Source: a virus
Taxonomy: Duplodnaviria; Heunggongvirae; Uroviricota; Caudoviricetes
Strand: one strand, 5' to 3'
Length of the DNA: 7,640 nt
IMG/VR virus record: IMGVR_UViG_2778261354_000005
The position numbers were made by a program, and so were the translations under genes. Below, piece after piece: positions 2,738-3,733 of the stretch (position 1 is its first letter; every line of letters begins with the position of its first letter). The notes beneath the pieces are model-generated. The model saw nothing but the letters and a program-made list of their open reading frames with translations, was not told where the DNA came from and did not search any database.

Positions 2738-3733
2738 TCACCCCCTGAATCCTTCCGGGATCTGGCTGTAGTCCACGTTGTCGTAACTGGCTTTGAAGTA
2801 CGGGTCCTCGCGTCTGGCTGCAGATACCGCAGGAACTTCCCAGGATTCTTCGAAATGACGATCCGGACCAAAGAACGTCGACGCCTGCTTCACGAACTGG
2901 GTACCGGTATTTCCAGAGACACGCACCCAGGCGGCATAGCGTTTCACACCGTCGAGCATGGTTTCGGGTGTCACACCTTCCCTGATTCGGGCTTTCCAGG
3001 CTTTAAAAGCGGCGGATTTTGAATTACCACCAGCACGTTTGGGATATTCCTGCCAGGCCTGTTCAAATTCCGGTGAATATTCCTGTCTGGCAGAACGCGC
3101 TGGTGCAGACGCGTCAGCGGATGCGCCAATAGTGTTTTTAGTCTCCGTTGTAATCTCTGTAGTAATCTCTGTAGTAATCTCTGTATTTGTATCAACATTC
3201 GGCGTATCCCCTGTTCCGTTATGACGTCGGGGGGTGTTCCGTTTTAACGTAATAGCTGTATCGCTGATTGCATTATTGCTGTTACTTTCTGGCGAAACAG
3301 AAGAAGGTGTGGTGATGGCCGCAATTGCCTGTGGGTTGATCCCGACAAACAAAATATTGCTGCATTTCACCCCATCGAGCATTTCCACCGTGCGTAAATC
3401 CAGAGTAATAAACCCTGCATCGCGCAGACGCTTCAGCGCATCTGCGGTTTCCCTTTTCCCGAAACCAAACTGCTCAGCAAACGCCTGGTAGCTTCTTTGC
3501 AGTTTGTCGCCCTGAAAACGCTTGCGATATCCCAGCAACGCTCCGGTGTGCTCATCCCTGACCTCTGTCGGGCGGTACCAGTAAACGATCTCTGAAAGCA
3601 GAGCGATAGCCGTCGCATCCGGACGCCCACTGGGTAGTCTAATATATTTCCACCAGGTCGCAGGTGTAACATTGCCGGAAATATTAATTTGACCAATAGC
3701 CATAACTTCCGGTGTGGGGGCGTAACGGCTCAT
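2738..3733 (-). CDS. Replication initiator, lambda O-like in architecture (N-terminal wHTH, repeat-bearing linker, C-terminal domain)
   Basis: 331 aa. It occupies the expected position in the early operon. The N-terminal region resembles the Phage_rep_O/replisome-organizer type (..AIALLSEIVYWY..ETADALKRLRDAGFITL..). The linker is encoded by tandem 12-bp repeats, as with lambda ori inside O. The C-terminal motif EFEQAWQEYPKRxGxxSKxxAFKAW is common in phage replication proteins. ATGA start overlap with a GGAGG SD. The family assignment is by eye. Confidence 0.7.
   Translation of the reverse strand: MSRYAPTPEVMAIGQINISGNVTPATWWKYIRLPSGRPDATAIALLSEIVYWYRPTEVRDEHTGALLGYRKRFQGDKLQRSYQAFAEQFGFGKRETADALKRLRDAGFITLDLRTVEMLDGVKCSNILFVGINPQAIAAITTPSSVSPESNSNNAISDTAITLKRNTPRRHNGTGDTPNVDTNTEITTEITTEITTETKNTIGASADASAPARSARQEYSPEFEQAWQEYPKRAGGNSKSAAFKAWKARIREGVTPETMLDGVKRYAAWVRVSGNTGTQFVKQASTFFGPDRHFEESWEVPAVSAARREDPYFKASYDNVDYSQIPEGFRG
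3138..3185. repeat. Tandem 12-bp direct repeats (GTAATCTCTGTA x3 perfect, plus one degenerate copy); candidate ori iterons inside the initiator gene
   Basis: 3150-3161, 3162-3173 and 3174-3185 are identical, and 3138-3149 matches 8/12. The repeats are in frame and encode TEIT-TEIT-TEIT. Confidence 0.8.

Follow-up and report, generated by a model that had tools for sequence, protein, structure and literature searches.

Initiator gene and linker repeat

The window, i.e., the whole 7,640-nt stretch of Caudoviricetes DNA analysed here (IMG/VR record IMGVR_UViG_2778261354_000005), presents the gene order CI, CII-like, Rha-Ash, initiator, Dam and RusA. The initiator gene (2738-3733, minus strand) encodes a protein of 331 aa that matched phrog_270 (E = 2e-77) and, with its C-terminal part, phrog_26426/1701, which supports its preliminary description as an O-like replication initiator. 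Searches with the initiator sequence against Pfam, NCBIfam and PDB returned no match, and a fold search gave generic, weak winged-helix matches only, the DnaD N-domain among them. Three parts, all encoded on the minus strand, were delimited with AlphaFold2: a winged-helix N-domain (aa 1-143, nt 3305-3733), a linker that would carry the origin (aa 144-216, nt 3086-3304; pLDDT below 35, predicted to be disordered) and a helical C-domain (aa 217-302, nt 2828-3085), followed by a disordered tail that ends in IPEGFRG. The layout is that of lambda O, with a winged-helix N-domain, a disordered linker, a separate C-domain and a position in the early-right operon after cII-like genes. A partner gene for a helicase loader or helicase (lambda P, DnaC-like or P22 gp12-like) is absent directly downstream of the window initiator, where the next gene encodes a Dam methyltransferase; two relatives (L003 and L004) carry DnaC-like and DnaB-like genes downstream of their initiators.

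The linker contains a 12-bp tandem array at 3137-3185 (minus strand), composed of three perfect units and one degenerate unit in frame with the gene. The AlphaFold2 domains place the repeat between the two folded parts of the protein, as had been proposed. Tandem Repeats Finder reported it at 3142-3185 (period 12, 3.7 copies, 93% matches, score 74). The unit GTAATCTCTGTA occurs exactly at 3150-3161, 3162-3173 and 3174-3185, and the degenerate fourth unit, TTAGTCTCCGTT (3138-3149), agrees with it at 8 of the 12 bases. With up to two mismatches to GTAATCTCTGTA allowed, four matches were found in the window against 0.38 expected, a number reached by none of 200 shuffles, and the repeat is therefore regarded as real. 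Read in gene sense and codon register, the array consists of ACAGAGATTACT (3184-3173 and 3172-3161), ACAGAGATTACA (3160-3149) and ACGGAGACTAAA (3148-3137), translated as TEIT TEIT TEIT TETK (residues T184-K199).

The preliminary description had also regarded the array as a potential frame-preserving VNTR and had proposed comparing its copy number among relatives. This comparison bore the suggestion out. Relative to the window gene, one allele (L001) differs by a single mismatch and a 24-bp insertion inside the array, resulting in five copies, and another (L002) by five mismatches and a 12-bp deletion, resulting in two. Among 58 E. coli alleles with near-identical upstream flanks, two copies were counted in 50, three in six, and four and five in one allele each. 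In sampled complete E. coli genomes, for which detection was independent of the presence of the array, matches spanned 383, 389, 401 or 425 bp, and no full-length match had fewer than two copies. Perfect units, a unit length that is a multiple of three and copy numbers that differ among near-identical alleles are the properties of a coding VNTR.

Iterons and duplex stability beside the array

The array had been put forward as the set of iterons bound by the initiator. Iteron sequences have to change together with the DNA-binding specificity of their own initiator, and the array is not taken as iterons here because the same 12-mer stays constant in about 45 families that differ in their upstream repeats and proteins. 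Instead, in 43 of the 43 families that could be tested, the 115 nt directly 5' of the array (gene sense) harbor family-specific repeats with a period of 22-23 bp; the mean identity at this lag was 0.54, compared to 0.31-0.32 in control segments (Wilcoxon p = 1e-8). In families with TTACGTT-type repeats, iterons start at -113, -90, -68, -45 and -23 relative to the array, which begins 23 nt past the start of the last iteron position.

The corresponding sites of the window, all on the minus strand, are of the TTACGTTNAAACGTAA type. The best candidate is the near-palindrome TTACGTTAAAACGGAA at 3237-3252, whose start lies at -68 relative to the array, in the register of the iterons of related families; it has two mismatches to TTACGTTGAAACGTAA and is the only window site with four or fewer. 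The remaining sites are all weak. A second candidate, CGACGTCATAACGGAA (3214-3229), lies 23 bp past the first and shares ACGTYAWAACGGAACA with it; these two sites fit the format of lambda-type iterons (spacing of 23, near-palindromic), whereas the array, with contiguous units of 12 bp and no inverted repeat reported in it, does not. A degenerate third position, ATACGCCGAATGTTGA (3192-3207), was assigned by its location 23 nt before the array and not by sequence match, and occupies the slot of the last iteron in the relatives L165, L117 and L076. Finally, a distal iteron-like site, TTTCGCCAGAAAGTAA (3282-3297), has six mismatches and falls in the -113 register; its equivalent in L036 is TTACGCCAGAACGTAA. 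The window showed an identity at lag 23 of 0.37 compared to the family mean of 0.54 and contains one good iteron site only, and its copy of the origin may be decaying. The earlier placement of the origin in the initiator linker is supported by these data, with the difference that the array would belong to it as an element other than the iterons. The corrected origin map of the window comprises iterons at ~3192-3297 and the common element at 3137-3185.

Within the initiator gene, the duplex is least stable over the array and its immediate edges (3128-3207), a candidate unwinding region. Its nearest-neighbour free energy corresponds to z ~2.6-2.8 relative to the whole window, and with window sizes of 40, 60 and 80 bp alike it was the least stable part of 2738-3733, ranking fourth, not first, in instability across the whole window. 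The tract has 34% GC compared to about 50%, the array itself (~33% GC) being only moderately AT-rich and much less so than the lambda tract, and across 45 families the AT excess amounted to +0.07 to +0.12 and was confined to -20..+40. The stability is thus lower than that of the surroundings, the effect being modest, and a block of iterons adjoins the array on one side, as expected of an unwinding element. The preliminary remark that no AT-rich block follows the repeats has to be qualified in this respect, because the array and its edges are that block.

A similar arrangement was found in L005, a relative belonging to the lambda O family, in which five iterons are directly followed by the array and then by a C-domain homologous to that of lambda O. 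The slot of the L005 array is occupied in lambda by the High-AT region encoding residues ~144-160. The in-frame deletions r95 and r96 in this region were described as origin mutations, yet O proteins shortened in this way retain trans complementation of O amber mutants (PMC6022878). The lambda tract was also examined as a possible decayed array: its best match to the consensus (39127-39174) had a p of ~0.03-0.05 versus shuffles, a value confounded by base composition, and this derivation is offered as a suggestion only.

Distribution and conservation of the array DNA

The DNA consensus of the array, ACAGAGAnTAmW, recurs in initiators of about 45 families, whose flanks are unrelated. At least 120 IMG/VR contigs and the genomes of 30 species contain the exact 23-mer ACAGAGATTACTACAGAGATTAC, against a chance expectation of ~0.02 matches in the genome collection by our own calculation. 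Its carriers comprise Enterobacterales, Legionellales, Marinomonas, Bacillus, Lysinibacillus, Staphylococcus, Macrococcus, Clostridia, Selenomonadaceae and Thermoanaerobacter, as well as Brocadiaceae and Ca. Amarolinea. The matches lie mid-protein in initiators with unrelated flanks, representing 45 non-redundant upstream families, and eight of the 12 positions (CAGAGA.TA), G/C positions included, are kept across phyla. Contamination of assemblies is an unlikely source of the cross-phylum matches, since the GC content of the flanks is typical of Firmicute hosts; moreover, two array-bearing phages, Staphylococcus phage 37 and Bacillus phage PM1, have been isolated. Two matches were left out of the evidence, namely an archaeal one in an unrelated acidic repeat protein (L149) and an isolated intergenic copy without iterons (L150). 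Literature searches with ACAGAGATTACT, its complement and TEITTEIT retrieved unrelated primers and text only, and keyword searches retrieved general papers on origins, none of which describes the motif.

The distribution of the array among initiators sharing the same C-domain depends on the N-domain: it was present in 72 of 84 homologues with a YW-type N-domain and, apart from two truncated YW-type proteins, in none of 28 with the SfV-type HTH_36 N-domain. On these counts, the array travels together with the N-domain and iteron module. N-domains and C-domains were grouped into 5 linked clusters and 25 clusters, respectively, which occur in many combinations. The similarity of E. coli genomes to the window ends in some cases exactly at the edge of the array (query 1-186, ending at 3185) and in others at 3131-3133, and HTH_36-type proteins join the C-module directly after the array position. 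Short identical DNA between unrelated flanks, with breakpoints at its edges, is what characterises a module boundary; this property is compatible with an origin function and does not exclude it.

Several observations bear on whether the DNA or the encoded peptide is conserved. When a degenerate-codon pattern for TEITTEIT was searched, 104 of 120 matches used identical DNA and about ten others differed solely by ACT->ACA or ATT->ATC, at loci ranging in GC content from 0.31 to 0.62. Conservation per position was computed on 41 flanking units lying outside the search selection: the third-codon positions 3, 6 and 9 were conserved at 98, 93 and 98%, respectively, and the second-codon position 8 at 29% only. 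The peptide drifts in orthologues (TENT, TETT, TKTT, TEIK). In a Thermoanaerobacter clade, whose proteins are 70-100% identical and come from independent sources, ACAGAGATTAC[T/A] is kept and read as DYYRDY. The proteins P0059, P0060 and P0080 and the locus L046 were considered as a third natural frame (QRLL) and rejected, as in each of them out-of-frame sequence either precedes or follows the array; a C-run of L046 contains one C too many, and all four are read as frameshifted genes. Finally, a segment with three iterons and three array units, and no initiator ORF, is present on pBSG3-type Bacillus plasmids; it is a homologue of the origin that phage PM1 carries within its initiator gene. These plasmid matches were obtained with a three-copy query from the window; a plasmid search with a five-copy synthetic query returned no match, probably due to low-complexity masking.

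Selection appears, on this comparative evidence, to act on the array DNA and not on the TEIT peptide. Nearly all carriers have the array in the TEIT frame, and some preference at the protein level may therefore exist as well. The frame-independent conservation, the non-coding copy of iterons plus array on plasmids and the lambda precedent (PMC6022878) point, indirectly only, to a possible need for the array in cis regardless of coding.

Candidate origin role and related systems

Taken together, we consider it fairly probable that the array functions in cis within the origin, as a part common to many initiator families, and that it likely serves as a sequence-specific element for unwinding or helicase loading. 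According to this proposal, the winged-helix N-domain of the initiator would recognise the family-specific palindromic iterons spaced by ~23 bp, and the array, starting one iteron period past the last of them, would occupy the slot of the A+T-rich unwinding region of ori-lambda. The complex on the iterons would stress the array tract, the least stable duplex of the gene, which would then melt, and the opened strands would be captured, leading to loading of the replicative helicase. Low stability is insufficient to explain the array because eight of its 12 positions, including G/C, are kept across phyla, and something conserved must therefore be supposed to read the sequence, as duplex or as single strand. 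The only component common to all array carriers is the “YW” superfamily of winged-helix initiators. The TEIT peptide would be a tolerated by-product in a disordered linker, and slippage would alter the number of copies in 12-bp steps, at least two being always kept; with natural variation between two and five copies, every step displaces the helical phase by 12 bp, which a strictly phased structure might not tolerate.

A more far-reaching reading, which we hold only tentatively and think somewhat doubtful, is that the ACAGAGAnTAmW repeats constitute a sequence-specific element of phage origins in general (pan-phage), read as duplex or as single strand by a conserved surface of the YW initiator superfamily or by its helicase-loading complex. 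They would then be a phage counterpart of the DnaA-trios and of the 13-mers of oriC and RK2, with a nucleotide sequence preserved from Proteobacteria to Firmicutes, and a universal opening module would be separate from the family-specific iterons used for targeting.

Other roles were weighed against these proposals. That the 12-mers are themselves specific sites of the initiator N-terminal domain is very improbable: the array does consist of repeated DNA and, like the iterons of lambda, sits between the domains of an O-like gene, and AACGGA, a sequence of the iteron core, occurs in its degenerate fourth unit as well, but the same 12-mer is accompanied by divergent N-domains and by some 45 sets of iterons that differ from one another, its contiguous 12-bp period without dyad symmetry is unlike the adjoining palindromic sites spaced by 22-23 bp, and the number of its copies varies freely. 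Equally improbable, and strongly disfavoured, is a neutral low-complexity VNTR providing a flexible Thr/Glu/Ile spacer without function at the DNA level. The disordered linker, the variable number of copies and the drifting peptide would suit such a spacer; nearly invariant synonymous sites next to a free non-synonymous one, identical codon choice across the whole range of locus GC, and the presence of the same DNA in another frame and outside any gene would not.

The most plausible competitor, although still unlikely, is a module-boundary sequence that serves the recombinational exchange of N-domain and iterons against C-domains and plays no part in initiation. The many combinations of the 5 N-domain and 25 C-domain clusters, the E. 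coli breakpoints, the junctions of HTH_36-type proteins and the recombination points 39157/8 and 39165/6 of the lambda GenBank record, which fall inside the degenerate 12-mer TCAGAGAATTCT, agree with it. Phages of Firmicutes and Proteobacteria rarely co-infect, however, and weak selection for future recombination is unlikely to have fixed eight of 12 bases between them; a boundary also leaves unexplained the fixed adjacency and register with iterons, the non-coding iterons plus array on pBSG3-type plasmids and the preservation of the DNA through a change of frame, and the hotspot may simply follow from conservation. There is, in addition, a small chance that the array acts by another sequence-specific route, whether as an RNA-level element of the initiator mRNA, as the site of a primer or R-loop, or as a site for a universal host factor unrelated to unwinding. 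The conserved G/C positions and the period of 12 nt imply that something reads the sequence, and the lambda origin fires only when it, or DNA close to it, is transcribed (PMC5043065). Against this, no Rfam match was found at the array, and a known RNA family was rejected; no sigma-70-like promoter was found in 2900-3500 and both terminator-like matches lie elsewhere, so that a role as promoter or terminator was rejected; and a function in the initiator mRNA would not apply to the plasmid copy, which is not surrounded by an initiator ORF. Judged by eye, the 12-mer fits neither a DnaA box (5-6/9 at best), nor an IHF consensus or CRP site, nor the LexA palindrome CTGT-N8-ACAG, since the array presents ACAG-N8-ACAG as a direct repeat; primase trinucleotides are too short to be meaningful.

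Origins consisting of iterons and an A+T-rich tract are textbook knowledge, and repeated motifs in unwinding regions are thought to be replicon-specific. What stands out in the array is one 12-bp motif nearly unchanged beside many iteron sets, in distant phyla, in another frame and outside genes. If it is indeed a functional opening or loading site, the melting step would be conserved in a very large family of phage initiators, a one-line signature would be available for prophage origins, including those of array-carrying Stx-converting and Staphylococcus phages, the recombination of N- and C-modules at the array would be explained, and the function of the DNA could be told apart from that of the peptide. 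As a pan-phage element, it would provide a simple signature of origins in temperate phages and would also reveal origin decoys, an example being the copy without an initiator on pBSG3-type plasmids.

Of the closest known systems, the High-AT region of ori-lambda adjoins the four O-binding iterons inside gene O. This region and the array both lie after the last iteron and before the conserved C-domain, in a translated linker, and both form a less stable duplex than the rest of the gene. The lambda DNA is needed in cis and the encoded peptide is dispensable (PMC6022878), which matches the frame-independent conservation of the array. The lambda tract is ~40 bp long, very A-rich and strand-asymmetric, without clear tandem units, whereas the array is a 12-bp head-to-tail repeat with ~67% A+T, invariant G/C positions and variable copies; its sequence is common across phyla, its similarity to the lambda tract is marginal, and lambda has no clear array. 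The lambdoid iterons (lambda, P22, L and Stx phages) likewise are repeated DNA in the linker of an initiator gene (PMC8022706, PMC7466680); they are ~18-20 bp long, spaced by 20-24 bp, often dyad-symmetric and initiator-specific, none of which applies to the array.

The 13-mers of E. coli oriC and RK2 oriV are, like the array, short direct repeats of 12-13 bp beside initiator sites. Their exact sequence matters, not only their AT content, and DnaA, TrfA and RepE bind one of the opened strands (PMC10797057, PMC5043065); more generally, initiators bind unwinding-region repeats in single-stranded form, and lambda O, P and DnaB bind opened strands (PMC10797057, PMC5043065, PMC7466680). Such 13-mers differ between replicons (PMC10797057), whereas some 45 families of phage initiators share the array in nearly the same form, as a coding sequence with a polymorphic number of copies. 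The DnaA-trios and the (G/A)ATCA repeats bound by RctB in Vibrio ori2 are periodic motifs beside the last duplex site that direct single-strand capture (PMC10797057), and the array is similarly placed, one iteron period past the last iteron. Its period is 12 nt compared to 3 or 5-6 nt in these motifs, and its initiators are winged-helix proteins and not AAA+ as in the DnaA-trio and RctB systems.

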